Notes under the pieces: model-generated
What the model was told of the DNA's origin: nothing
The model's database searches: none
What the model saw: only the letters and a program-made list of their open reading frames with translations
Position numbers and translations under genes: made by a program
DNA from: Armatimonadota bacterium
GTDB lineage: Bacteria; Sysuimicrobiota; Sysuimicrobiia; Sysuimicrobiales; Kaftiobacteriaceae
Assembly: GCA_037440005.1 (NCBI GenBank)
Contig: JBBIUY010000004.1
Location: forward strand, 23,673-87,672
DNA: 64,000 nt
Direction: 5' to 3'
Part shown: in pieces, positions 28,658 through 53,700 of the stretch
Layout: each line of letters opens with the position of its first letter
How positions within the stretch are numbered: the first letter of the stretch is position 1

Positions 28658-29308
28658 TCAGGGCTCGATGAGGCCTTTGCGGATGGCGTAGCGGACCAGT
28701 TCGGTGCGGTCGTGCAGCCCCAGCTTCTCCAGGATGTGGGCCCGGTGGGTCTGCACGGTCTTGATGCTGATGAACAGGCGCTCGGCGATCTGCTGGTTGG
28801 ACAGGCCCTGGGCGATGAGGGTGAGGATCTCCTTCTCCCGCTCGGTCAGGCCGTCGTAGCGGTCCCGCTCCTCCCCCGCTTCCACCCTCTTGAGGTAGTC
28901 CTCCACCACCTTGCGGGCCACCGACGGGTACAGGAAGGCCTCCCCCCGGGCCGCGGCGCGCACCGCCTGCACCAGGTCGGAGGCGGCGGCCCGCTTGAGG
29001 ACGTAGCCCGACGCGCCCGCCCGCAGCAGCTGGAAGACGTAGGACTCGTCCTCGTGCATGGTCAGGGCGAGCACCGCCACGGCGGGGTGGCGCTCCTTCA
29101 GCCGGTGGGTGGCCTCGATGCCGCCCATGCCCGGCATGCTGATGTCCATGATCACCACGTCGGGCCGCAGGCGCTCCACCAGCTCCAGGGCCTGCCGGCC
29201 GTCTCCCGCCTCCCCCACCACCTCGATGTCCTTCTCCCGGGCCAGGATCATGCGCACGCCCTCGCGGACGATGGCGTGGTCGTCGGCGATGAGGACTCTA
29301 ATTGCCAT
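28658..29308 (-). CDS. NarL/LuxR-family response regulator
   Basis: Receiver domain (RVLIADDHAIVREG...DISMPGMGG) plus a LuxR HTH. Confidence 0.9.
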   Translation of the reverse strand: MAIRVLIADDHAIVREGVRMILAREKDIEVVGEAGDGRQALELVERLRPDVVIMDISMPGMGGIEATHRLKERHPAVAVLALTMHEDESYVFQLLRAGASGYVLKRAAASDLVQAVRAAARGEAFLYPSVARKVVEDYLKRVEAGEERDRYDGLTEREKEILTLIAQGLSNQQIAERLFISIKTVQTHRAHILEKLGLHDRTELVRYAIRKGLIEP

Positions 29309-31349: not shown

Positions 31350-31547
31350 CTCCGTTCCCGCTCCTCTTCCAGTGTACTCCGGCCGTTCCGGCCCGGCCCA
31401 TCGGGCCTCCGCCCGAGGGTCCCCTCATCCGCCGACGCCCTAATCCGGCTCCCGCCCGATGGCCCCGCGGGGACGGGCGGCCGTATGCTGCTGGTACGGA
31501 TGCGGAGCGCACCCAGCGCGCAGGCGCCGGACCGGCGGGGTGAGGAG

Positions 31548-32222
31548 ATGAGCAGGGCGACGCAGGCCGTGTCCCCCATCCGGATCCTGATCGCCGACGA
31601 CCACGCCGTCGTCCGCGAGGGGATCCGCATGATCCTGGAGTCCGAGCCGGATTTCGAAGTGGTCGGGGAAGCCACCACCGGCCGGGAGGCGGTGGACCTG
31701 GTGCGGCGGGTGCGCCCGCACGTGGTGGTCATGGACATCAGCATGCCACAGATGAACGGCGTGGAGGCCACCCGAGAGATCCGCCGGATCAGCCCCGAGA
31801 CCCACGTGCTCATCCTGACCATGCACGAGGACGAGTCCTACGTCTTCCAGCTGCTGCAGCTGGGGGCGGCGGGCTACGTGCTCAAGCGGGCCGCCGCCTC
31901 GGACCTGGTGGAGGCGGTGCGGGCGGCGGCGCGGGGCGAGGCGTTCCTGTACCCCTCGGTGGCCCGGAGCGTAGTGCAGGACTACCTGGAGCGGCTGCGC
32001 GCGGGCGAAGGGCGGGACCGGTACGACGGCCTGACCGAGCGGGAACGGGAGATCCTGGTCCTGCTGGCCGAGGGCCTGACCAACGCCCAGATCGCCGAGC
32101 GGTTGTTCATCAGCGTCAAGACGGTGCAGACCCACCGGGCCCACATCATGGAGAAGCTGGACCTCCACGACCGGGCCCTGCTGGTCCGCTACGCCATCCG
32201 CAAGGGGCTGATCCAGGCCTGA
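31548..32222 (+). CDS. NarL/LuxR-family response regulator, close paralogue (~75% identical) of the 28658..29308 product
   Basis: IRILIADDHAVVREGIRMIL...DISMPQMNG and the same LuxR HTH C-terminus. It is divergent from the GAF kinase operon. Confidence 0.9.
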   Translation: MSRATQAVSPIRILIADDHAVVREGIRMILESEPDFEVVGEATTGREAVDLVRRVRPHVVVMDISMPQMNGVEATREIRRISPETHVLILTMHEDESYVFQLLQLGAAGYVLKRAAASDLVEAVRAAARGEAFLYPSVARSVVQDYLERLRAGEGRDRYDGLTEREREILVLLAEGLTNAQIAERLFISVKTVQTHRAHIMEKLDLHDRALLVRYAIRKGLIQA

Positions 32223-32312
32223 GGAAAGGGAAGAGGGAAGAAGGAAGAGGGAAGAGGGGACCGCTGTGTTCCCTCCATGCCTTTTCCTTCTTCCCTCTTC
32301 CCTCTTCCCTTC
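32221..32312 (+). repeat. (GGGAAGA)n heptamer purine repeat followed by a complementary (TCTTCCC)n block; G-tract element copy 1
   Basis: GGAAAGGGAAGAGGGAAGAAGGAAGAGGGAAGAGGGG, a ~20-nt spacer, then CCTTTTCCTTCTTCCCTCTTCCCTCTTCCC. Markedly low GC for this genome. It can fold as a long imperfect hairpin and contains a G3N4G3...G3N4G4 quadruplex motif. Confidence 0.7.
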
Positions 32313-32330
32313 ATGTAAGATGATTACGCC

Positions 32331-33302
32331 ATGCCGCGGGTGGGCGTGTTGACCAGCGGAGGGGACGCGCCCGGAATGAACGCCGCCATCCGGGCGGTGG
32401 TGCGGACGGCGCTGGCCGCCGGGTGGGAGGTGGTGGGCATCCGCCACGGCTACGCCGGCCTCATCGCCGGCGAGGTGACGCCCCTGACCGCCCGGGACGT
32501 GGGCGGGATCATCCAGCTGGGCGGCACCATCCTGCACTCGGCGCGCTGCCCGGACTTCTACGCCCCCGAGGGTCGCCGCCGCGCCCTCCAGACCCTGGAG
32601 GAGCACCGGATCGACGCCCTGGTGGTCATCGGCGGCAGCGGCTCCCAGTGCGGCGCCTACGAACTGTCCCGGGCCGGGGTCCGGGTGGTGGGGGTGGCGT
32701 CCACCATCGACAACGACATCTACGGCGCCGACATCTCCATCGGGGTGGACACCGCGCTCAACATCGCCCTGGAGGCGGTCGACCGGCTGAAGACCACGGC
32801 GTCCGCTCTCCAGCGGGCGTTCCTGGTGGAGGTGATGGGGCGCCAGTGCGGGTACCTGGCCCTGATGACCGCCCTGGCCGGCGGCGCCGAGGCGGTGGTG
32901 ATTCCCGAGGTCGAGGTCCACCCCGAGCAGATCGTGGAGGACCTGCGCCTGGCGGCCCGGCGGGGCAAGGCCCACGCCCTGGTGGTGGTGGCCGAGGGAG
33001 CGGCGTACAACGCCGAGCGCCTGGTCCGTTACTTCCAGGAGCACCGGGAGCGGCTGGGCTACGAGCTGCGGGCCACCATCCTGGGCCACGTGCAGCGCGG
33101 CGGGGCGCCCACCGCCTTCGACCGCCTGCTGGCCACCCGGGCTGGGGCGGCCGCCGTGGACCTGCTCACCGAGGGGACCCACGGGGTCATGGTGGGCCTG
33201 CGCCGGGGGGAGATCGGGACCACGCCCCTGGCGGAGGTGGCGGCCAACAGGAAGACGCTGGACCTGCGGCTGCTGGACCTGGTCCGCAGGCTGGCCACCT
33301 AG
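32331..33302 (+). CDS. pfkA: ATP-dependent 6-phosphofructokinase
   Basis: GGDAPGMNAAIR, MGRQCGYLALM and the overall PfkA layout; 323 aa. Confidence 0.9.
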   Translation: MPRVGVLTSGGDAPGMNAAIRAVVRTALAAGWEVVGIRHGYAGLIAGEVTPLTARDVGGIIQLGGTILHSARCPDFYAPEGRRRALQTLEEHRIDALVVIGGSGSQCGAYELSRAGVRVVGVASTIDNDIYGADISIGVDTALNIALEAVDRLKTTASALQRAFLVEVMGRQCGYLALMTALAGGAEAVVIPEVEVHPEQIVEDLRLAARRGKAHALVVVAEGAAYNAERLVRYFQEHRERLGYELRATILGHVQRGGAPTAFDRLLATRAGAAAVDLLTEGTHGVMVGLRRGEIGTTPLAEVAANRKTLDLRLLDLVRRLAT

Positions 33303-33311
33303 GAGGGATCC

Positions 33312-34316
33312 GTGGAGCCGTTGACCGTCGGCAAGGTGCGCGGCCTGCAGCAGATCTCCGACCCCGGCGGGATTTTCGCCATCTGCGCCATGGACCATCG
33401 GGGGTCCCTGCAGCGCCTGCTGGACCCGCAGGCTCCCGCGCGGGTGGACGCCCGGGCGCTGGTGGAGGTGAAGCTGGACCTGGCCGACGCCCTGGCGCCG
33501 GTGTCCACCGCGGTCCTGCTGGACCCGCTGTACGGCGCCGCCCAGGCGGTGGCCGCCGGCGTCCTGCCGGGCCGGACGGGACTGCTGGTGAGCCTGGAGG
33601 AGACCGGCTACGACGACCACCCCCAGGGACGGGTCACCCGGCTGCTGGAGGGCTGGAGCGTGGAGAAGACCCGCCGGATGGGGGCGTCGGGCGTGAAGGT
33701 CCTGCTGTACTACCGCCCGGACCTCTCCGACACCGCCGCCCGGCAGCAGGACCTGGTCCGCCAGGTGGCCGAGGACTGCCGGCGGTGGGACCTGCCGTTC
33801 GTCCTGGAGCCCATCGTCTACCCCGCCCCCGGTGAGGATGCGGAGACGTTCGGCGCGCGTCGGGCGGACCTGGTGGTGCGCACCGCCCGGGACCTGGCCG
33901 GATTGGGCGTGGACGTGCTCAAGGCCCAGTTCCCGGCCGACCTGCGTCGCGAGCGGGACCCGGGGGTGCTGCTGGAGGCCTGCCGCCGGCTGGACGCCGC
34001 CTCGCCGGTGCCGTGGGTCCTGCTCAGCGGCGGGGTCGGGTATGACGAGTTTGTTACCCAGGTGGAGATCGCCTGCCGCGCGGGGGCGTCGGGCTTTCTG
34101 GCGGGGCGGGCGGTGTGGGAAGACGCCCTGCGGATTCCCGACCGCGCCGATCGCCGCCGCTGGCTCCAGACGGTCGGGGCCGACCGGATGCGACGGCTGC
34201 ACCAGATCGCCGGCGAGCACGGCCAGCCCTGGTGGCGCAAGCGGCGTCTGGCCCGGGACGCCCTGGCGCCGGTGTCCGACTCGTGGTACCGGGAGTACGG
34301 CGGAGGGCTGTCATGA
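33312..34316 (+). CDS. Class I aldolase, LacD/DeoC-family (tagatose/fructose-bisphosphate aldolase-like)
   Basis: 334 aa with IFAICAMDHRGSL... in a TIM-barrel class I aldolase pattern. Lies 10 nt downstream of pfkA. GTG start. Confidence 0.6.
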   Translation: MEPLTVGKVRGLQQISDPGGIFAICAMDHRGSLQRLLDPQAPARVDARALVEVKLDLADALAPVSTAVLLDPLYGAAQAVAAGVLPGRTGLLVSLEETGYDDHPQGRVTRLLEGWSVEKTRRMGASGVKVLLYYRPDLSDTAARQQDLVRQVAEDCRRWDLPFVLEPIVYPAPGEDAETFGARRADLVVRTARDLAGLGVDVLKAQFPADLRRERDPGVLLEACRRLDAASPVPWVLLSGGVGYDEFVTQVEIACRAGASGFLAGRAVWEDALRIPDRADRRRWLQTVGADRMRRLHQIAGEHGQPWWRKRRLARDALAPVSDSWYREYGGGLS

Positions 34317-34456
34317 TGCGGATGGTGCGGTATGCGGTGGCGGTGGTGCTGGCGGTGGCGGGGACCGCGGTGATCGCCCTGGCGGCGTACGTCGCCTACC
34401 TGGTCGGGTTGTGGTCCCGGTCCGCCCGCCGCGAGCACGCGCCGTCGGCGCGCTAG
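34313..34456 (+). CDS. Possible small membrane protein
   Basis: 47 aa, MMRMVRYAVAVVLAVAGTAVIALAAYVAYLVGLW. ATGA overlap with the aldolase gene, with a GGAGGG RBS 6 nt upstream. Confidence 0.35.
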   Translation: MMRMVRYAVAVVLAVAGTAVIALAAYVAYLVGLWSRSARREHAPSAR

Positions 34457-34526
34457 CCCGGGCGCCGACGGCAGAGGGGACAGGTCGTCGGGAGCCCCGC
34501 GCTCCCGAACGCGGAGGGGGGAGAGC

Positions 34527-35690
34527 GTGGCGACGGCAGACGTGGTGGTCGTGGGCGGGGGCGTGACCGGGACCAGCGCGGCGTTCCAGCTGGCCCGCCG
34601 GGGACGGCGGGTCCTCCTTCTGGAACGGAGCACGGTGGGCGCCGGCCCCACCGGCAGGACCGTCGGCATCATCCGCCTGCACTACTCTTACGAGCCGCTG
34701 ATCCAGCTGGCCGCCCGCAGCCGGGAGACCTTCGCCCGCTTCGAGGAGGTCACGGGAGCGACCTGCGACTTCACCCGGTGCGGGTTCCTGCTGCTGGCCC
34801 CCGAGCGGGAGATGGACGGCCTGCGGGAGATCGTGGCCATGCAGCGCCGCCTGGGGATCGAGGCCGAGGTGCTCTCCCCGGACGAGGTGGCGCGGAGGTT
34901 CCCGCAGCTGGCCACCCAGGACGTGGCCGGAGGGGCGTGGGAGCCCGGCTCCGGGTATGCCGACGGGTACGCCACGGCCGCCGGGTTCGCGGCGGCGGCG
35001 CGGCGGCTGGGGGCGGAGATCTGGGAGGGGACGGTCGCCCGGGCGCTGGTGGTCGAGGGCGGGCGGGTGCGGGGGGTGCAGACGTCCCGGGAGGCGGTGG
35101 ACGCCGGCGCGGTCCTGGTGGCCGCCGGGCCGTGGACGCCGGGCCTGCTGCACCCCCTGGGCGTGGACATCCCCATCCGGTCCTCCCGCCAGCAGGTGGT
35201 CCACCTGGCGCCCCCGGCGGGGTGGCGGCTGCCGGCGGTGGTGGAGGACATGGTCCTGGGCCTGTACGCCCGCCCGGAAGCCGGGGACACGGTGCTGGCG
35301 GGGGTGCTGGAGGAAGAGGCCGAGCAGATCGTGCAGCCCGACAGCTACAGCCCGGGGGTGGACTTCGACTTCGTCGAGCGGATCGGGACGCTGTGGGCCC
35401 GCCGGTTCCCCGCCGCCCGCGTGGCTCAGGTGCGGGGCGGATACGCCAGCCTGTACGACATCACCCCCGACTGGCAGCCGGTGCTGGGGACCGTGCCGGA
35501 GGTGGGCGGATTGTTCGTGGCGGCCGGGTTCTCGGGCCACGGGTTCAAGCTCAGCCCGGCCGTGGGCGAGGTCCTCGCGGCGCTGATCACCGGCGACACG
35601 CCGCCGGTGGACGTGTCCATGTTCCGGCTGAGCCGGTTCGCCGAGGGCCGGCTGATCCGCGGCCGTCACGCGCAGGGGATACTGGGGTAG
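34527..35690 (+). CDS. FAD-dependent oxidoreductase (DAO family; sarcosine/glycine oxidase-like)
   Basis: N-terminal dinucleotide fold VVVVGGGVTGTSAA...LLLER; 387 aa. Confidence 0.8.
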   Translation: MATADVVVVGGGVTGTSAAFQLARRGRRVLLLERSTVGAGPTGRTVGIIRLHYSYEPLIQLAARSRETFARFEEVTGATCDFTRCGFLLLAPEREMDGLREIVAMQRRLGIEAEVLSPDEVARRFPQLATQDVAGGAWEPGSGYADGYATAAGFAAAARRLGAEIWEGTVARALVVEGGRVRGVQTSREAVDAGAVLVAAGPWTPGLLHPLGVDIPIRSSRQQVVHLAPPAGWRLPAVVEDMVLGLYARPEAGDTVLAGVLEEEAEQIVQPDSYSPGVDFDFVERIGTLWARRFPAARVAQVRGGYASLYDITPDWQPVLGTVPEVGGLFVAAGFSGHGFKLSPAVGEVLAALITGDTPPVDVSMFRLSRFAEGRLIRGRHAQGILG

Positions 35691-35750
35691 GGAGAAGGGA
35701 AGAGGGAAGAAGGAAGAAGGAAGAGGGAAGAGGGGGACAAGAGGCAGGAG
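35691..35750 (+). repeat. (GGGAAGA)n heptamer purine repeat; G-tract element copy 2
   Basis: GGAGAAGGGAAGAGGGAAGAAGGAAGAAGGAAGAGGGAAGAGGGGG immediately after the stop codon at 35690. Confidence 0.7.
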
Positions 35751-35783
35751 CCGCGGCGGCGGGGTGGGTATCTAATATCCTGA

Positions 35784-36865
35784 TGCTGTTCACCTTCGTG
35801 GGCGACCGCGGCGATCCGGCGCTGGCGCGGGTGGCGGAGGGCGTGCGCGCCGCCTTCGAGCGCCGGGGGCATGTCTACACCGACGACCCCGAAGCGCCCG
35901 ACCTGCGGCTGGTCTTCAACTTCATCGACGTGGACCGGCCGCGGCCCTACCGGCGGCGGGCCAAGGCCATCTTCGTGGTGTCGGTGGCCGTCACCGACCA
36001 GCGGCCCGACAACGTCCTGCGCCAGGCCTACCCGCTGCTGGTGCGGTCTCTGGCCAACCTGTGCATCTACCTGGTCCGGGACCCGGAGACGGTGCACACC
36101 TACTTCGTCACCCTGGAGCAGGGCTACTACCCCATCCCCGACCTGGCCGGGGACGACTACTTCGACTACCTCTACGAGCGCCTGCATCCGCTGGCCTCGT
36201 CCCAGCTGGTGATCGACAACGAGTTCCACCCCGACCTGGAGCCTGAGCTGTGGGAAGGCGACGACCTGACCCGCCAGCTGAGCGAGGCCGGGCGGCGACT
36301 GGACGCCCTGAACCTGCTGCCGGCGCCCTTTCCCATCCACGAGCTGCTGGACGAGCGCGACCTGCGCCACATCGAGCGCCTGTACGGCATCGGCGGGCTG
36401 TCCTACGGGAACCTGAGCGTCCGCAAGGACGCCCGGCGCTTCTGGATGAGCGCCAGCGGGGTCGACAAGGCCAACATGAAGGTCATCGGCCGGGACATGC
36501 TGCTGGTCAAGGGGTATGACCCGCAGCGGCACGTGATGCTGCTCAGCGTACCTCCCCACGTCAAGCCCCGCCGGGTGTCGGTGGACGCCATCGAGCACTG
36601 GATGATCTACACCGAGCACCCCTCGGTGGGCGCCATCGTCCACGTGCACGCCTGGATGGAGAACATCACCTCCACCTCCATCAACTACCCCTGCGGGACG
36701 ATCCAGCTGGCCCGGGCGGTGGCGGAGGTGGTGCGGCAGGCGCCGGACCCCGCCCGCGCGGTGGTGGGCCTGAAGAACCACGGCCTGACCATCACCGGCC
36801 CCACCCTGGACGACATCTTCACCCGCCTGGAGCGCGGCTTCATCCGCCAGGTGCCCATGTCGTAG
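35784..36865 (+). CDS. Class II aldolase/adducin-domain protein
   Basis: 360 aa. C-terminal half contains HVHAWMENITSTSINYPCGTIQLA...NHGLTITGPTLDD, typical of the AraD-like class II aldolase fold. Confidence 0.6.
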
Positions 36866-36927
36866 ATGCGCCGCCACGGCCTCCGCCCCGCCGGAGGCGT
36901 TCCGCTCCGTGCGCCGCGCGCCGTCTG

Positions 36928-38148
36928 ATGCGCGCCCTGGTCTTCCACCCCACCATTCCCCGGTTTGTCGTCACCCGGGCCCTGGGCCGTCTCAGCCGGC
37001 AGGCGGCGTGGGGGCCGTGGGCCCCCCTGCGGTACCGGGACGTGCCCGAGCCTCCGCTGCCGGGGGAGGAGTGGGTGCGGGTGCAGGTCCGCCTGGGCGG
37101 GATCTGCGGCAGCGACCTGCACACCATCCAGCTGGACAGCAGCCCGGCCCTGTCGGCGCTCACGTCGTTTCCCTTCGTCATGGGACACGAGAACGTGGGC
37201 ACGGTGGTGGAGGTGGGCCGCCGGGCCCACGGGCTCGCGGTGGGCCAGCGGGTGACCGTGGAGCCGGCGTTGCCGTGCGCGGCCCGGGACCTGCCCCCCT
37301 GCCCGTACTGCGCGGCCGGCCGGTACAACCTGTGCGTGCGGGTGGCCGACGGCCACCTCAGCCCGGGGCTGATGATCGGCGCCTGCCGGGACACCGGCGG
37401 CAGCTGGAGCGGCGGCTTCGTCGCCCACCGCTCCCAGGTCTTCCCGGTGCCCGACGGCGTATCCGACGAGGAGGCGCTGATGGCCGAGCCGGCGGCGTGC
37501 GCGGTGCACCCGCTGCTGTCGTCGCCCCCGCGGGATCAGGATACGGTCCTGGTGATCGGCGGGGGGGTCATCGGCCAGTGCGCCATCGCCGCCCTCCGCG
37601 CCCTGGGCAGCGCGGCCCGGATCGTCGCCCTGGTCAAACACCCCCATCAGGGCGAGGCCGCCCGCCAGCTGGGCGCCGACGCGGTGGTGCGGCTGGGTCC
37701 GGGCGACGCCCACTACCCGGAGGTGGCCGACCGGGTGGGCGGGGTGCTGCGGCGGCCCATGCTGGGCAAGCGGGTGCTGCTGGGGGGCGCCGACCTGACC
37801 GTGGAGTGCGTGGGCAGCGCCCGCAGCCTCGACGACGCCCTGCGGCTCACCCGGCCCGGGGGGACGGTGATCGTGCTGGGGCTGGCGGCGATTCCGGCGG
37901 GGGTGGACTGGACCCCCGTGTGGTGGAAAGAACTCCGGGTCACCGGCAGCTACATCTACGGGGTGGAGACCTGGCAGGGGCGGCGCGTGCGCACCATCCC
38001 CCTGGTGCTGGAGTGGATGGCCGCGGGACGGATGCGGCTGGGTCACCTGGTGACCCACCGCTATGCCCTGGACGACTACCGGGAGGCGCTGAGGGTCGCG
38101 ACCGGCAAGGCCGCCTCCGCCGCGTTCAAGGTCGCCTTCGCCCCCTGA
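36928..38148 (+). CDS. Zn-dependent alcohol dehydrogenase (MDR family)
   Basis: GGICGSDLH catalytic Zn motif, GHENVGTVVEVG and the Rossmann fold VIGGGVIGQ. Confidence 0.85.
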   Translation: MRALVFHPTIPRFVVTRALGRLSRQAAWGPWAPLRYRDVPEPPLPGEEWVRVQVRLGGICGSDLHTIQLDSSPALSALTSFPFVMGHENVGTVVEVGRRAHGLAVGQRVTVEPALPCAARDLPPCPYCAAGRYNLCVRVADGHLSPGLMIGACRDTGGSWSGGFVAHRSQVFPVPDGVSDEEALMAEPAACAVHPLLSSPPRDQDTVLVIGGGVIGQCAIAALRALGSAARIVALVKHPHQGEAARQLGADAVVRLGPGDAHYPEVADRVGGVLRRPMLGKRVLLGGADLTVECVGSARSLDDALRLTRPGGTVIVLGLAAIPAGVDWTPVWWKELRVTGSYIYGVETWQGRRVRTIPLVLEWMAAGRMRLGHLVTHRYALDDYREALRVATGKAASAAFKVAFAP

Positions 38149-38211
38149 CCCCGGCCGGGCGGGTCGCCGGGACCGCGGTCCGGTCCCCCCGGACGCGGCG
38201 GGCGGGGTGGA

Positions 38212-39495
38212 TCAGGGGTAAATGCCGCGGGCCAGCAGGGCGTCGGCCACCCGGCCGATGGCGTAGATGAGGGCGGCGGTCCGCAGATCCACCTCCCGCT
38301 CGCGGGCCAGCAGGGCGACTCCGTGGAACGCTTCGACCATGACCTGCTCCAGCCGCCGGTTGACTTCTTCCTCGCTCCAGAAGAACGCCTGGAGGTCCTG
38401 CACCCACTCGAAGTAGGAGACGATCACCCCGCCGGCGTTGGCCAGGATGTCGGGGACGACCAGCACGCCCCGGTCGGCCAGGATCTGGTCGGCGTCGGGC
38501 GTGGTGGGCCCGTTGGCGGCCTCCACCACCAGCCGGGCCTGCACCCGGGCGGCGTTGCGGGCGGTGATCTGACCCTCCACGGCGGCCGGCACCAGGATGT
38601 CGCAGGGCAGTTCCAGCAGCTGCTGGTTGGTGACCGGTTCGCCGCGGGGGAAACCCTGCACCCCGCCGGCGCGGCGCGCGTGGTCCAGGACCGCCCGCGG
38701 GTCCAGGCCGCCCGGATTGTAGACGCCGCCGCCGACGTCGCTGACGGCCACCACCCGGCAGCCCAGGTCGTGCAGCAGGCAGGCGGCCACCGAGCCCACG
38801 TTGCCGAACCCCTGCACCACCACCCGGCTGCCGGCCAGGGGGAAGCCCGCCAGGGCGGCCGCCTCCCGGGTGACGATGGCCACACCGCGTCCGGTGGCCT
38901 CCACCCGGCCGTGGGAGCCCCCGATGCTCAGCGGCTTGCCGGTCACCACCGACGGCGTCGAGTACCCCCGGTGCATGCTGTAGGTGTCCATGATCCACGC
39001 CATCACCCGGGGGGTGGTCCCCACGTCGGGAGCGGGGATGTCCGAGTCGGGCCCCACTAGCACGCTGATCTCGGTGGCATAGCGCCGGGTGAGCCGCTCC
39101 AGCTCGGCCGGCGACAGGGTGGAGGGGTCGCAGGCCACGCCGCCCTTGGCGCCCCCGTAGGGCAGGTGCATCAGGGCGCACTTCCAGGTCATGAGCATGG
39201 CCAGCGCCCGCACCTCGGCCAGGTCCACCTGCGGGCTGTAGCGGATGCCGCCCTTGCTGGGGCCCAGAACCGTGCTGTGGTGCACCCGGTAGCCGGTGAA
39301 CACCCGCACCGACCCGTCGTCCATCCGCACCGGGAAGGCGACGGCCAGCTCGCGGGCGGGAGTGGCCAGGAACTCCCGGATGCCCCGGGGCAGGGTCAGG
39401 TGGTCGGCGGCGCGGTGGAACTGGCGGAGGGCCGCGTCCCAGGGGTCGTCGGTCCGCACGGCCGGCGGGGCGGAGGAGGAGAGGTCGGACCGCAC
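38212..39495 (-). CDS. gdhA: Glutamate dehydrogenase (Glu/Leu/Phe/Val dehydrogenase family)
   Basis: LPYGGAKGG catalytic Lys motif and the GFGNVG NAD(P)-binding motif. GTG start with a GGGAGGA RBS. Confidence 0.9.
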   Translation of the reverse strand: MRSDLSSSAPPAVRTDDPWDAALRQFHRAADHLTLPRGIREFLATPARELAVAFPVRMDDGSVRVFTGYRVHHSTVLGPSKGGIRYSPQVDLAEVRALAMLMTWKCALMHLPYGGAKGGVACDPSTLSPAELERLTRRYATEISVLVGPDSDIPAPDVGTTPRVMAWIMDTYSMHRGYSTPSVVTGKPLSIGGSHGRVEATGRGVAIVTREAAALAGFPLAGSRVVVQGFGNVGSVAACLLHDLGCRVVAVSDVGGGVYNPGGLDPRAVLDHARRAGGVQGFPRGEPVTNQQLLELPCDILVPAAVEGQITARNAARVQARLVVEAANGPTTPDADQILADRGVLVVPDILANAGGVIVSYFEWVQDLQAFFWSEEEVNRRLEQVMVEAFHGVALLAREREVDLRTAALIYAIGRVADALLARGIYP

Positions 39496-39497
39496 GG

Positions 39498-40457
39498 TCA
39501 GTCCTCCCGGCGTTCGAAGGTGATCCACGCCGGCTGGCGCACGAAGCCCAGCGCGGTGTTGATGCGCAGCATGGGGGCGTTCAGGGAGTCGTTCCAGGTG
39601 CGGATCTCCCGGTACCCCTGCCGCCGGGCGTACTCGATCACCCGCAGCTTCAGCGCCAGCGCGATCCCCTTCCCCCGGTACTCCCGCCGGACGGCGGTCA
39701 GCCCCTGGTACAGCACGTCGGGCAGCCGCTGGCTGCGGAGGACGAAACTTTCCCCCACGCACCGGTCTCCGTCCACCGCCAGGACGTGGCCGTCGGGCAG
39801 GTAGTTGGGGTTGTCCAGCAGGCGCTGGCGGTATTCGTCCAGCGTCGGCGGAGTATAGGGCTCGGGCTGGGGGATGTCGGCCGCGGCCGTGGTGTGCAGG
39901 TCGTACAGGGCGGCCAGCCAGTGCGGGTGGCGCTCCCGCAGCTCGGCCGCGGTGACGACCTGCACCTGCCGCACCGCCTGCGCCGCTTTGGCCGCGAAGG
40001 GCCGGGGGTCGAACGACGCCACCGCCAGCCGCGACTCCCAGGCCCGGCGGACCTCGCGGAACCCCCGGTCCTGCACGAACCGCACGCTGCGGGGGAAGGT
40101 CTCCCGCACCCCGGTCCACAGCACGGTCGGGCGCAGGGGGCGCATGGCCTCGGTCAGCTCCCGGTACAGGCGCGTGCCGATGCCCTGTCCCTGGCGGTCG
40201 GGGCGGACCACGACATCCACCCACAGTTTCTGCGGGTGGTACATGGTGGCCACGTGGTGGTACTCGGCCATCCCCACCAGATCCCCGGCCTCCTCCGCCA
40301 CCAGGCGGCCCAGGTGCAGCCGGTCCCCGTCGTAGCGGGCGTCCTCGTGCCGCCACTCCTCCTCCGACCAGGGGTAGTCGGTGTAGACGGCGGAGGCGAG
40401 AGCGACAGCCGCCGGGTAGTCCCTGTCCTCAAAGGGTCGGATCGCGACAGCGGTCAC
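39498..40457 (-). CDS. Tandem-GNAT N-acetyltransferase
   Basis: Two GNAT-like halves (RQGQGIGTRLY... and REYRGKGIALALK...); 319 aa. Confidence 0.75.
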   Translation of the reverse strand: MTAVAIRPFEDRDYPAAVALASAVYTDYPWSEEEWRHEDARYDGDRLHLGRLVAEEAGDLVGMAEYHHVATMYHPQKLWVDVVVRPDRQGQGIGTRLYRELTEAMRPLRPTVLWTGVRETFPRSVRFVQDRGFREVRRAWESRLAVASFDPRPFAAKAAQAVRQVQVVTAAELRERHPHWLAALYDLHTTAAADIPQPEPYTPPTLDEYRQRLLDNPNYLPDGHVLAVDGDRCVGESFVLRSQRLPDVLYQGLTAVRREYRGKGIALALKLRVIEYARRQGYREIRTWNDSLNAPMLRINTALGFVRQPAWITFERRED

Positions 40458-40524
40458 GCAGGATACCTTCTCACACCCGGCGGGGCGGGCGCAAGTCCCC
40501 GGGGGGCGGCGCCGGTGACGCTGC

Positions 40525-40554
40525 TTGTTGGGGGCGGAGGCTGCGCCGTATAAT
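40525..40554 (+). promoter_or_regulatory. Sigma-70-like promoter for the tRNA-Tyr/tRNA-Gly locus
   Basis: TTGTTG (-35), an 18-nt spacer, then a perfect TATAAT (-10) 11 nt upstream of the tRNA-Tyr 5' end. It is conspicuous in a 72%-GC background. Confidence 0.5.
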
Positions 40555-40565
40555 GCTAGTCGGTC

Positions 40566-40652
40566 GGGCGGGTACCGAAGCGGCCAAACGGGGCTGACTG
40601 TAGATCAGCTGGCGGAATGCCTTCGGAGGTTCGAATCCTTCCCCGCCCACCA
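40566..40652 (+). tRNA. tRNA-Tyr (anticodon GTA), CCA encoded
   Basis: The 7-bp acceptor stem GGGCGGG/CCCGCCC pairs. Anticodon loop CTGTAGA, a long variable arm, T-loop TTCGAATCC and a 3' ACCA. Confidence 0.85.
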
Positions 40653-40658
40653 CGCACT

Positions 40659-40742
40659 AGGGAAGAGGGAAAAGATCGCGTCCAACGTTTCAACGTTCCA
40701 ACGCGCTAAAGGGAAAAGGGAAGAGGGAAGAGGGAAAGGACT
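40659..40742 (+). repeat. (GGGAAGA)n / GGGAAAA G-tract repeat pair flanking an AT-rich CCAACGTT palindromic spacer; G-tract element copy 3
   Basis: GGGAAGAGGGAAAAG, then GCGTCCAACGTTTCAACGTTCCAACGCGC, then AAAGGGAAAAGGGAAGAGGGAAGAGGGAAAGG, which contains four G3 tracts with 4-nt loops. Confidence 0.7.
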
Positions 40743-40773
40743 GGGGTTTCCGCCGATTCTGCTTCCTGCGGGT

Positions 40774-40847
40774 GCGGGGATAGCTCAATGGTAGAGCTCC
40801 GGCCTTCCAAGCCGGTGATGCGGGTTCGATTCCCGTTCCCCGCTCCA
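40774..40847 (+). tRNA. tRNA-Gly (anticodon TCC), CCA encoded
   Basis: The acceptor stem GCGGGGA/TCCCCGC pairs. Anticodon loop CTTCCAA, T-loop TTCGATT and a 3' TCCA. Confidence 0.85.
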
Positions 40848-42399: not shown

Positions 42400-42531
42400 C
42401 CGCCGGAGGACGCGCGAGATCGCGCCGCGCGGAATCGGCCGTCTCCGCCGCCGGTGCACGGGGTGTCGTGCGGGCGAGGGTGCCCGACGGAGGCACATCG
42501 CGGGGGCGCGGGGAGTCAGACCCGGGCGCCA

Positions 42532-42590
42532 CGACAATTGGGGTCAGAACCCCACTGTCGTCGAAACCCGACAATTGGGGTCAGACCCCA
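42532..42590 (+). repeat. Tandem direct repeat of a small hairpin unit CGACAATTGGGGTCAGA(A)CCCCA in the folD-folC intergenic region
   Basis: Two copies, 42532-42554 and 42569-42590. Each contains TGGGG-N6-CCCCA. A degenerate third copy (GGGAGTCAGACCCG) lies upstream. Confidence 0.6.
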
Positions 42591-42641
42591 AGTGTTGTGA
42601 TCCTCGCCCGGGGCTGCAGCCGGGCCGCAGGGGAGCATGAC

Positions 42642-53319: not shown

Positions 53320-53700
53320 TGGCCATTTGAGGGCAGTGTCCTGCACCAGATCGGACAGGCGCATCCGGGAAAAGCGAGGACACTTCCCCCTCGCCGCGGA
53401 GGAAGAGGGCTGAGGGTGGTCATCTTCCCCCGCAGAGAAGGGGCCGCCGGTCTTCATCGTCCCGCTCTCGGAGAGGGGAGGGCGAGGAGGGGTCAGCCTT
53501 GCCGCTCGAGGGGAGAGGGCGAAGAGGGTCGTCTTCCCCCGCCTGAGGTGAGGGTGGAAGGTCGTCGTCTTCTCCCTCCTGGAGACAGGACTGGGCATAA
53601 TGACCTTCCCTCTCCCCCCGTGTGGGGAGAGGGTGCGGGTGAGGGGGTGCAGGTCAGCCCAGCCGGGTCAGTGCCGCATGCGCGCGGCGGTGCTACCGTC
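53320..53700 (+). repeat. G-tract/C-tract-rich repetitive intergenic region with a perfect 10-bp hairpin
   Basis: Repeated units GAGGG(T)GGTC(G)TCTTCCCCCGC. G-quadruplex-type runs GGAGAGGGGAGGGCGAGGAGGGG and GGGGAGAGGGTGCGGGTGAGGGGG. Perfect hairpin CCCTCTCCCC-CCGTGT-GGGGAGAGGG at 53608-53633. Confidence 0.6.

Follow-up and report, generated by a model that had tools for sequence, protein, structure and literature searches.

Heptamer arrays at gene ends

We describe here a family of tandem purine heptamers, built on the unit GGGAAGA, which lies directly behind genes in a 64-kb stretch of contig JBBIUY010000004.1 (assembly GCA_037440005.1). The whole of this stretch is called the window, and L-numbers are labels of the loci and contigs compared with it. 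Gene calls were taken from the public contig L121, which is identical to window 22331-43302; the window sequence also matches the metagenome-assembled genome (MAG) GCA_964489355.1. Copy 1 of the element lies between a LuxR-type response-regulator gene (L121 9155-9892, that is, window 31485-32222, with the stop codon TGA at 32220-32222) and pfkA, which starts at 32331. Copy 2 separates a gene for an FAD-dependent oxidoreductase, ending at 35690, from a class II aldolase gene starting at 35783. Copy 3 sits between tRNA-Tyr (40566-40652) and tRNA-Gly (40774-40847), both located with ARAGORN. The features of the three loci are the following.

32221-32260, plus strand: purine (5') arm of copy 1, about five GGGAAGA/AGGAAGA units, 40 nt, starting inside the TGA at 32220-32222
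32261-32279, plus strand: loop of copy 1; a small inner stem (32254-32275), made up of the loop and the innermost parts of both arms, was flagged in the terminator scan
32280-32312, minus strand: complementary (3') arm of copy 1, (TCTTCCC)n on the plus strand and hence a GGGAAGA array on the minus strand, pairing with 32221-32260
32316-32333, plus strand: -10-like TAAGAT (32316-32321) and the pfkA ATG (32331), read from the sequence as a putative promoter and start
35689-35737, plus strand: copy 2, a single purine array of about seven units, 49 nt, with no complementary arm, starting inside the TAG at 35688-35690
40659-40675, plus strand: copy 3a, a short array (GGGAAGAGGGAAAAGA) of 17 nt, 6 nt past the 3' end of tRNA-Tyr (40652)
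40676-40707, plus strand: insert of copy 3, a tandem 8-mer (TCCAACGT) in 2.9 copies with AACGTT palindromes, about 56% GC, delimited by Tandem Repeats Finder (TRF)
40708-40740, plus strand: copy 3b, four GGGAAAA/GGGAAGA units, 33 nt, ending 33 nt upstream of tRNA-Gly (40774)
40741-40773, plus strand: possible decayed pyrimidine arm (TTTCCGCCGATTCTGCTTCC), alignable to the (CCCTCTT)n arm that is intact in the orthologous hairpin of L123

A preliminary description of this DNA had reported GGGAAGA arrays at three 3' flanks, and the four purine runs and one pyrimidine run listed above are indeed found there. With at most two mismatches, the 14-mer GGGAAGAGGGAAGA matches the window 16 times against 0.36 expected, a number reached by none of 100 shuffled sequences. 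TRF delimits period-7 arrays at 32223-32258, 35696-35734 and 40708-40737 and the complementary array at 32280-32310, with 4.3-5.6 copies and 90-93% matches, and about a quarter of the heptamer units are the variant AGGAAGA. Purine or pyrimidine runs of at least 30 nt occur within the 64 kb only at the GGGAAGA loci. The GC fraction of the arrays is 0.47-0.56, rather than the 45% or so first given, in a window of 0.727. The insert of copy 3, first seen as an AT-rich palindromic spacer, does contain AACGTT palindromes; it is not AT-rich, being itself a tandem repeat of about 56% GC. A CAACGT-type tandem repeat of 8 or 9 nt adjoins a GGGAAGA array at two non-orthologous loci (window 40676-40707 and L093 4070-4112, at the latter behind the purine array), which hints at a composite element.

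Every array is non-coding, reads as purine on the coding strand and starts at, or no more than 6 nt past, a stop codon or the end of a tRNA, so that the early observation of a start on the coding strand at the 3' flank stands. The offsets are -2, -2 and +6 nt for copies 1, 2 and 3. Each array occupies most of the gap to the promoter or start of the next gene: the 3' arm of copy 1 ends 3 nt before the -10-like TAAGAT, and 45 nt lie between the end of copy 2 and the leaderless-looking start of the aldolase gene. Copies 2 and 3 are single arrays, and copy 1 is a convergent pair with a stem of about 30 bp. Past the response-regulator TGA, the reading frame has no stop for 31 codons, up to the TAA at 32316, and the heptamer period scrambles the frame.

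The arrays also behave as a family, as first suggested. The same unit order, [GGGAAGA]2[AGGAAGA]1-2[GGGAAGA]GGGG, is found in arrays 1 and 2, which lie 3.4 kb from each other, and the three loci are clustered in 8.5 kb of the 64-kb window (p about 0.05). In L213, which extends the sequence 4.3 kb beyond the right end of the window, a fourth locus, (GGGAAAA)3 at L213 2379-2401, lies 2 kb outside the window, on the coding strand of a convergent spacer and directly after a TAA stop (offset 0 nt at L213 2379). The copies are therefore not confined to the window, and about 68 kb of the source genome hold four loci.

We considered whether the arrays could be an assembly artefact, and this is unlikely. 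Window 32229-35725 recurs without a difference in a Logan assembly of run SRR11582147, an agreement of a second assembler on reads that may be those of the MAG, and arrays occur in relatives from other samples. The Logan contig, L122, starts inside array 1 (32229) and ends inside array 2 (35725); such ends may reflect further near-identical copies that tangle the assembly graph. Another contig from public runs, L129, likewise ends inside such a structure, at the equivalent of L128 10850. Short-read assemblies of the clade may be broken systematically by these elements.

The genes downstream have promoter-like sequences of their own. Hexamers resembling a -10 box lie 6-12 nt before the ATG of pfkA and of the class II aldolase gene (window 32316-32333 and 35771-35785), and are present in several relatives too; ATGTAAGATG precedes pfkA in both the window and L128, and TATGATG stands at the equivalent place in L123. 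No Shine-Dalgarno (SD) sequence is visible at the pfkA and aldolase starts. Because the boxes are so close to the ATG and no SD is visible, both genes appear to be leaderless, and the sequence suggests that leaderless or near-leaderless mRNAs are frequent in the lineage. The tRNA-Tyr gene has a perfect TATAAT at 40549-40554.

Folding and G-quadruplex potential

The long hairpin described for copy 1 is recovered by folding, as copy 1 and its complement reach -69.2 kcal/mol (z = -6.8). Its arms, 32227-60 and 32270-303, are 85-92% complementary, and a similar pair is found at L123 20734-20824. No significant fold was obtained at copy 2 (z = -0.5) or copy 3 (z = +1.3). The full stem of copy 1 is not followed by a U-run but by CAUGUAAGAUG, and the terminator scan flags nothing other than the inner stem 32254-32275, for which the pyrimidine arm was taken as the 'tail', with nothing flagged at copies 2 and 3. 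In a search of the loci against Rfam 15, the two tRNAs alone pass the gathering thresholds, and copy 1 scores far under threshold with generic miRNA-hairpin models.

Stable stems right after genes, as in copy 1 and in the relatives discussed below, recall intrinsic terminators, including the U-tract-less hairpins proposed for high-GC bacteria. In contrast to these, the long stems here lack a U-run, measure 25-35 bp and are thus far longer, and copies 2 and 3 have no stem at all. The earlier suggestion of a terminator or insulator is plausible only for the hairpin copy, copy 1.

It had further been proposed that every copy contains at least four GGG tracts with 4-nt loops, with a G-quadruplex (G4) as the operative feature. 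The tract pattern is true only of 40711-40734, in copy 3b, which is also the only place where an array by itself satisfies the canonical definition (four G3+ tracts with N1-7 loops). Copy 2 fits the rule only with G-tracts borrowed from the last codons of the preceding gene (35675-35699), copy 1 would require an 11-nt loop, and copy 3a has two G-tracts. A canonical motif is thus present in one or two of five arrays, a number too small to reveal a preference for four units, and the AGG variant units interrupt the G-tracts. The arrays contribute 2 of the 34 canonical G4 motifs in the whole window. A triplex-forming (H-DNA) mirror repeat was also considered and set aside: read in reverse, GGGAAGA becomes AGAAGGG, giving the tandem unit GGGAGAA, and the array is not mirror-symmetric.

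The same junctions in relatives and in other phyla

The closest relatives by PfkA are labelled Armatimonadota. A near-identical type of array stands directly after a stop codon in Candidatus Calidihabitans tengchongensis (L093 4020-4069), of the phylum Sysuimicrobiota/CSP1-3 (PMC11604079), and the window organism is probably close to Sysuimicrobiota/CSP1-3. A related array is also present in L081 (MAG 'Bacillati bacterium ANGP1'), where the nearest open reading frame (ORF) of at least 100 aa ends 122 nt upstream. Both bear out the existence of a family.

Synteny is kept in relatives with 79-93% PfkA identity, which allows the same junctions to be compared. Over 20 kb, window and L123 share 84-87% identity, and their alignment breaks from 32222 to 32315 and from 35689 to 35743. 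At these two sites, L123 carries hairpins of the unrelated 9-mer GATCTGCGC and its complement (z = -3.9 and -6.7). The sharp breaks between conserved flanks indicate that the arrays are replaced cassettes. The third site is the spacer between tRNA-Tyr and tRNA-Gly, two genes that are 100% identical in window and L123; here L123 has an intact GGGAAGA-type hairpin, and the window a degenerate version with the 8-mer insert. The G-rich unit is thus kept at one of the three orthologous sites, the other two being GATCTGCGC.

The wider comparison extends this picture. Among eight relatives, the tRNA-Tyr/tRNA-Gly spacer holds GGGAAGA arrays in two, 9-mer hairpins of GTCTACNNG (GTCTAC-type) in three (L133, L134 and L136) and ordinary hairpins in three (L138, L146 and L147), and some hairpin is kept in seven of the eight. 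At the aldolase/ADH junction, examined in 28 relatives, the genes overlap by ATGA in six and are separated by about 5-25 nt in four and by a plain spacer of 60-90 nt in about ten; the rest have hairpins of GTCTWC-type 9-mers, GGGAGTA or ATTGTGA. The spacer between the response-regulator gene and pfkA in L128 folds to -5.3 kcal/mol only. The unit families of other relatives include GTCTACNNG, GGGAGTA, CGTGATT and ATTGTGA. In a TRF census of 86 loci (1.1 Mb), low-GC inverted arrays of period 7 or 9 turned up in relatives whose aldolase is at least 79% identical and in one more distant lineage (L179/L180), and GGGAAGA-type arrays only in the window and L123. Arrays were present in none of 10 divergent spacers against 12 of 45 others (p = 0.10), counts that come from the five loci with real gene calls.

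At shorter distances, two relatives of about 95% identity are set apart by the gain or loss of a single 9-nt unit, confined to one arm, and divergence is faster in their loops than in their arms. No indels were seen in arrays between strain pairs of 99.5-99.96% identity, and on this ground we rejected a hypervariable contingency locus.

One hairpin family of soil relatives deserves separate mention. Its members, of 110-170 nt, have arms of four or five tandem 9-mers (GTCTAC or GTCTTC followed by NNG), termini of the form GCGTCTAC...GTAGACGC, a single orientation and unrelated loops; in the member at L133 9470-9640, the loop encloses a canonical terminator of stem and T-run. Further unit families of hairpins or arrays in relatives are GATCTGCGC, CGTGATT, GGGAGTA/GGGATTA, CCCCCGA, ATTGTGA and CGTATTG. 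Several of these hairpins occupy junctions that have just 9 nt in the window or a gene overlap in relatives.

GTCTAC-type hairpins: L125 16889-17015 and 18246-18356; L133 9470-9640 and 14474-14598; L134 11084-11200, 12425-12565 and 15171-15296; L136 likewise; L144 3840-3950
Hairpins and arrays of the further unit families: L123 9896-10000 and 13358-13490; L125 10973-11090; L128 10761-10862 and 4946-4991; L133 8148-8260; L179 1850-1990

These comparisons bear directly on the proposal that a G4, in DNA or in the RNA of the 3' untranslated region, pauses RNA polymerase, blocks exonucleases or regulates the neighbouring gene. The coding strand does carry the G-rich strand right after the stop codon, copy 3b and, with borrowed tracts, copy 2 fit the canonical rule, and related heptamers form G4 in vitro, with transcripts in Xanthomonas starting or stopping there more often than at control repeats (PMC4692102). 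However, copy 1 would be locked in its -69 kcal/mol duplex, AGGAAGA units break up the tracts, and the two GATCTGCGC hairpins of L123, a relative of about 85% identity, are incapable of G4 formation, and further relatives have units of CGTGATT, GTCTACNNG or ATTGTGA. Since what recurs is the site and the hairpin shape, and not the G-rich sequence, a G4-specific role is very unlikely. Judging from the motifs, G4 formation is possible in vitro for some copies, yet it is not the conserved feature.

A scan of the contigs of many genomes with GGGAAGAGGGAAGARGGAA, used here as a sample across phyla, gave at least 120 loci; the source genome is not among the matches listed, to which all counts in this paragraph refer. 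They comprise at least 123 GGGAAGA arrays in Cyanobacteria, with many in Microcoleus and Okeania, Gemmatimonadota, Acidobacteriota, Verrucomicrobiota, Streptomyces and others. An ORF of at least 100 aa ends within 10 nt upstream of 23 of the 123 arrays when read on the purine strand, against 5 on the opposite side (p = 9e-4), and within 50 nt in 40 against 15 cases, which extends to other phyla the coding-strand, stop-adjacent placement first noticed in the window. Of the pyrimidine tracts near a purine array, 21 are downstream of it and 3 upstream (p = 3e-4). A general rule of 'purine arm first', as expected from weak rPy:dPu hybrids, was nevertheless rejected: the G-rich families fit it (21 against 3), and the GTCTAC-type hairpins do not. 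The sample also contains longer arrays, with nine perfect units in Streptomyces sp. MB09-02B (L004) and purine tracts of 150-250 nt in cyanobacteria (L019 and L109), and in the Acidobacteriaceae L008 and L092 there are two separate arrays of about 30 nt per locus, roughly 0.8 and 3 kb apart.

By their anatomy, the window arrays belong with the G-rich heptamers GGGAATC of Xanthomonas and GGGGA(C/T)T of Nostoc, described by Rehm et al. (2015, PLoS One, PMC4692102), as a lineage-specific family. Those repeats are intergenic, form G4 in vitro and are found within 0-50 bp after stop codons, with the G-rich strand as coding strand and a preference for four units. There are about 180 per genome, and each Xanthomonas genome has 70-75 inverted pairs in convergent arrangement; the repeats are under-represented where genes diverge, vary in length between species, have no known link to mobile elements, and no regulatory role was found for them (PMC4692102). 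Similarly, the window arrays are head-to-tail 7-nt units of a G3 tract and a 4-nt 'loop', non-coding, placed just after stops with the G-rich strand as coding strand, and either single or, as in copy 1, in convergent inverted pairs capable of forming stem-loops. Unlike the repeats of Rehm et al., their unit is the all-purine GGGAAGA, of which the variants AGGAAGA and GGGAAAA are frequent and break the G-tracts, their host is an uncultured lineage of 73% GC with the NCBI label Armatimonadota, and the unit is kept at one of three sites at about 85% DNA identity, against 83% same-site retention between two species of Xanthomonas.

Other heptamers resemble the arrays in part. The short tandemly repeated repetitive (STRR) sequences of cyanobacteria and the TAACTGA repeats are also tandem intergenic heptamers with lineage-specific units; however, the STRR units differ and are defined in heterocystous cyanobacteria, and TAACTGA heptamers lie shortly upstream of start codons and hardly ever occur inverted (MacGregor 2015, PMC4679880). 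An integron attC site came into question since attC hairpins stand behind cassette ORFs; it was rejected on account of the syntenic core-metabolism flanks and the lack of R'/R'' cores.

Possible origin and function, and other repeats in the window

REP-like elements (repetitive extragenic palindromes) or another small mobile element had also been proposed. REP elements stabilise upstream mRNA and punctuate operons. We could accordingly imagine a non-autonomous palindromic element, similar to REP/REPIN sequences or to MITEs (miniature transposable elements with inverted repeats), that inserts just after stops and amplifies its own family in each genome. Like REPs and REPINs, the repeats described here are species-specific, extragenic and located 3' of genes, with doublet hairpins of about 100 nt that have conserved arms and variable loops. 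One family recurs at several sites, with three GGGAAGA loci in the window, three GTCTAC hairpins in L134 and two of GATCTGCGC in L123; the GTCTAC family combines conserved termini, one orientation and unrelated loops, as in REPINs; replacement is cassette-like with sharp boundaries, in one case at a junction where relatives have an ATGA overlap; and a de Bruijn contig that begins and ends in arrays perhaps points to more near-identical copies.

In contrast, each REP is an imperfect palindrome of 20-40 nt with a GTAG/CTAC head, and such a palindrome is absent from the window arrays, which are all-purine, have no GTAG and are unable to self-pair; in general, the arms here are tandem, non-palindromic 7-9-mers. 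No clean empty site was found, nor a target-site duplication at any copy; an inverted arm is missing from copies 2 and 3, the loops of same-family hairpins in relatives are unrelated, and array lengths differ by whole units. No transposase or REP-associated tyrosine transposase (RAYT) is found among the genes annotated in window 22331-43302 and 53097-68305 or, by Pfam, among 10 ORFs between 544 and 16847. Finally, the copies found so far are clustered, and copies of one family within 1-9 kb fit local copying better than transposition (p about 0.05). We consider a mobile element unlikely.

We favour, with about even confidence, the view that slippage gave rise to the arrays as repeat cassettes, which take up the space from a stop codon to the promoter or start that follows, and that they act, at most, as boundary structures independent of sequence. 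Units would be gained and lost by replication slippage, a process to which the indel of a single 9-nt unit in one arm between relatives of about 95% identity points. An array may then be copied locally and at times inverted, giving a hairpin, and unit families would replace each other over time at the same permissive sites. Inverted copies would form long stems that bracket the entire stop-to-start interval. Any function would depend on shape and not on the G-rich sequence: the paired form may mark the boundary between transcription or translation units, as an insulator or terminator that has no U-tract, as a block against 3' exonucleases or as a site for RNase III. Arrays without a partner would be unfinished or degraded forms that do little or nothing.

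Several points weigh against this view. Its functional steps are all conjectural, the stem of copy 1 is without a U-run, and copies 2 and 3 are unfolded, so that four of the five arrays found here cannot act as hairpins. Hairpins are missing at some orthologous sites (the response-regulator/pfkA spacer of L128 and the overlapping genes of several relatives), which makes them dispensable. In addition, slippage alone leaves unexplained why one unit family occurs at several sites per genome, why the arm termini (GCGTCTAC...GTAGACGC) and a single orientation are shared within a family, and why the arrays begin right at stop codons, on the coding strand; all this agrees with an active mechanism of copying or mobility, or with a sequence-specific function. 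Strains of more than 99.5% identity, moreover, show no change in copy number.

It is possible, though in our view doubtful, that the cassettes have no function at all and are neutral or selfish by-products of polymerase slippage and of templated correction of imperfect palindromes, persisting wherever non-coding DNA tolerates them. Their sporadic presence, with hairpins of at least 100 nt in some relatives at junctions where genes overlap in others, the turnover of unit families, the single-unit indel confined to one arm, the AGG variant units and the decayed arm of copy 3 would all be expected from such a process, and Rehm et al. found no regulatory role for their repeats (PMC4692102). Neutrality is harder to reconcile with the bias towards the coding strand and stop codons (23 against 5) and with the purine arm coming first (21 against 3), both among the matches listed, with the lack of polymorphism between near-identical strains, and with a hairpin of some kind in seven of eight tRNA spacers.

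It is also tempting to speculate that hairpins with tandem 7-9-mer arms are a distinct, actively propagated class of elements. Each genome would have its own family (GGGAAGA, GATCTGCGC, GTCTACNNG or GGGAGTA), written into the stop-to-start interval over older hairpins and and might act as an RNase III-type separator of cistrons, giving the upstream one a protected 3' end and the downstream one a leaderless 5' end. We regard this as quite unlikely; if true, it would reveal a new way for intergenic elements to move or be homogenised, with a part in operon processing built in.

A last alternative places the function in the unpaired purine tract, as an RNA platform that would aid the next cistron through SD-like AGGA/GAGG motifs, CsrA-type GGA motifs, S1 binding or a pyrimidine-free, Rho-resistant spacer. 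The arrays contain neither C nor U and no structure is predicted for them, pfkA and the aldolase gene lack a visible SD, and similar proposals have been made for the TAACTGA heptamers (PMC4679880). However, the constant relation of the arrays is to the upstream stop and not to the downstream start, with one locus lying between convergent genes and one between tRNAs; orthologous sites carry non-purine units, and the downstream genes have their own conserved -10-like boxes. Such a platform is therefore highly improbable.

Irrespective of their origin, G-rich heptamers directly behind stop codons now extend over several unrelated phyla, including a Sysuimicrobiota-like lineage. The pair of window and L123 provides a natural experiment, as the same intergenic sites are G-rich in one genome and non-G in a close relative, which separates G4 explanations from those based on any hairpin or any repeat, and metatranscriptomes exist for cultured enrichments of related organisms (PMC11604079). 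For annotation, the arrays can be used as marks of true gene ends.

The window holds other repeated sequences. The response-regulator gene upstream of copy 1 (window 31585-32222, plus strand) has a paralogue at 28658-29295 on the minus strand, 2.3 kb away and beside a gene for a GAF histidine kinase, the pair being 80.6% identical at the nucleotide level over 643 nt. A spacer of about 340 nt after an AdoHcyase-like gene (window 53380-53650) is dense in G-rich and C-rich repeats with long-range inverted matches, among them three 25-mers resembling GARGGTSGTCWTCTTCCCCCGC and two copies of GAGRGGRGRGGGCGARGAGGG, a repeat family distinct from GGGAAGA. Finally, the FolD/FolC spacer (window 42530-42599) contains a 30-nt palindromic element, CGACAATTGGGGTCAGA(A)CCCCACTGTCG, in two direct copies 37 nt apart, with a third, partial GGAGTCAGACCC at 42512. 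Each copy has an internal GGGG...CCCC stem and the two jointly form a longer hairpin, a pair that, from its sequence, looks like a paired operator or a REP-like doublet.

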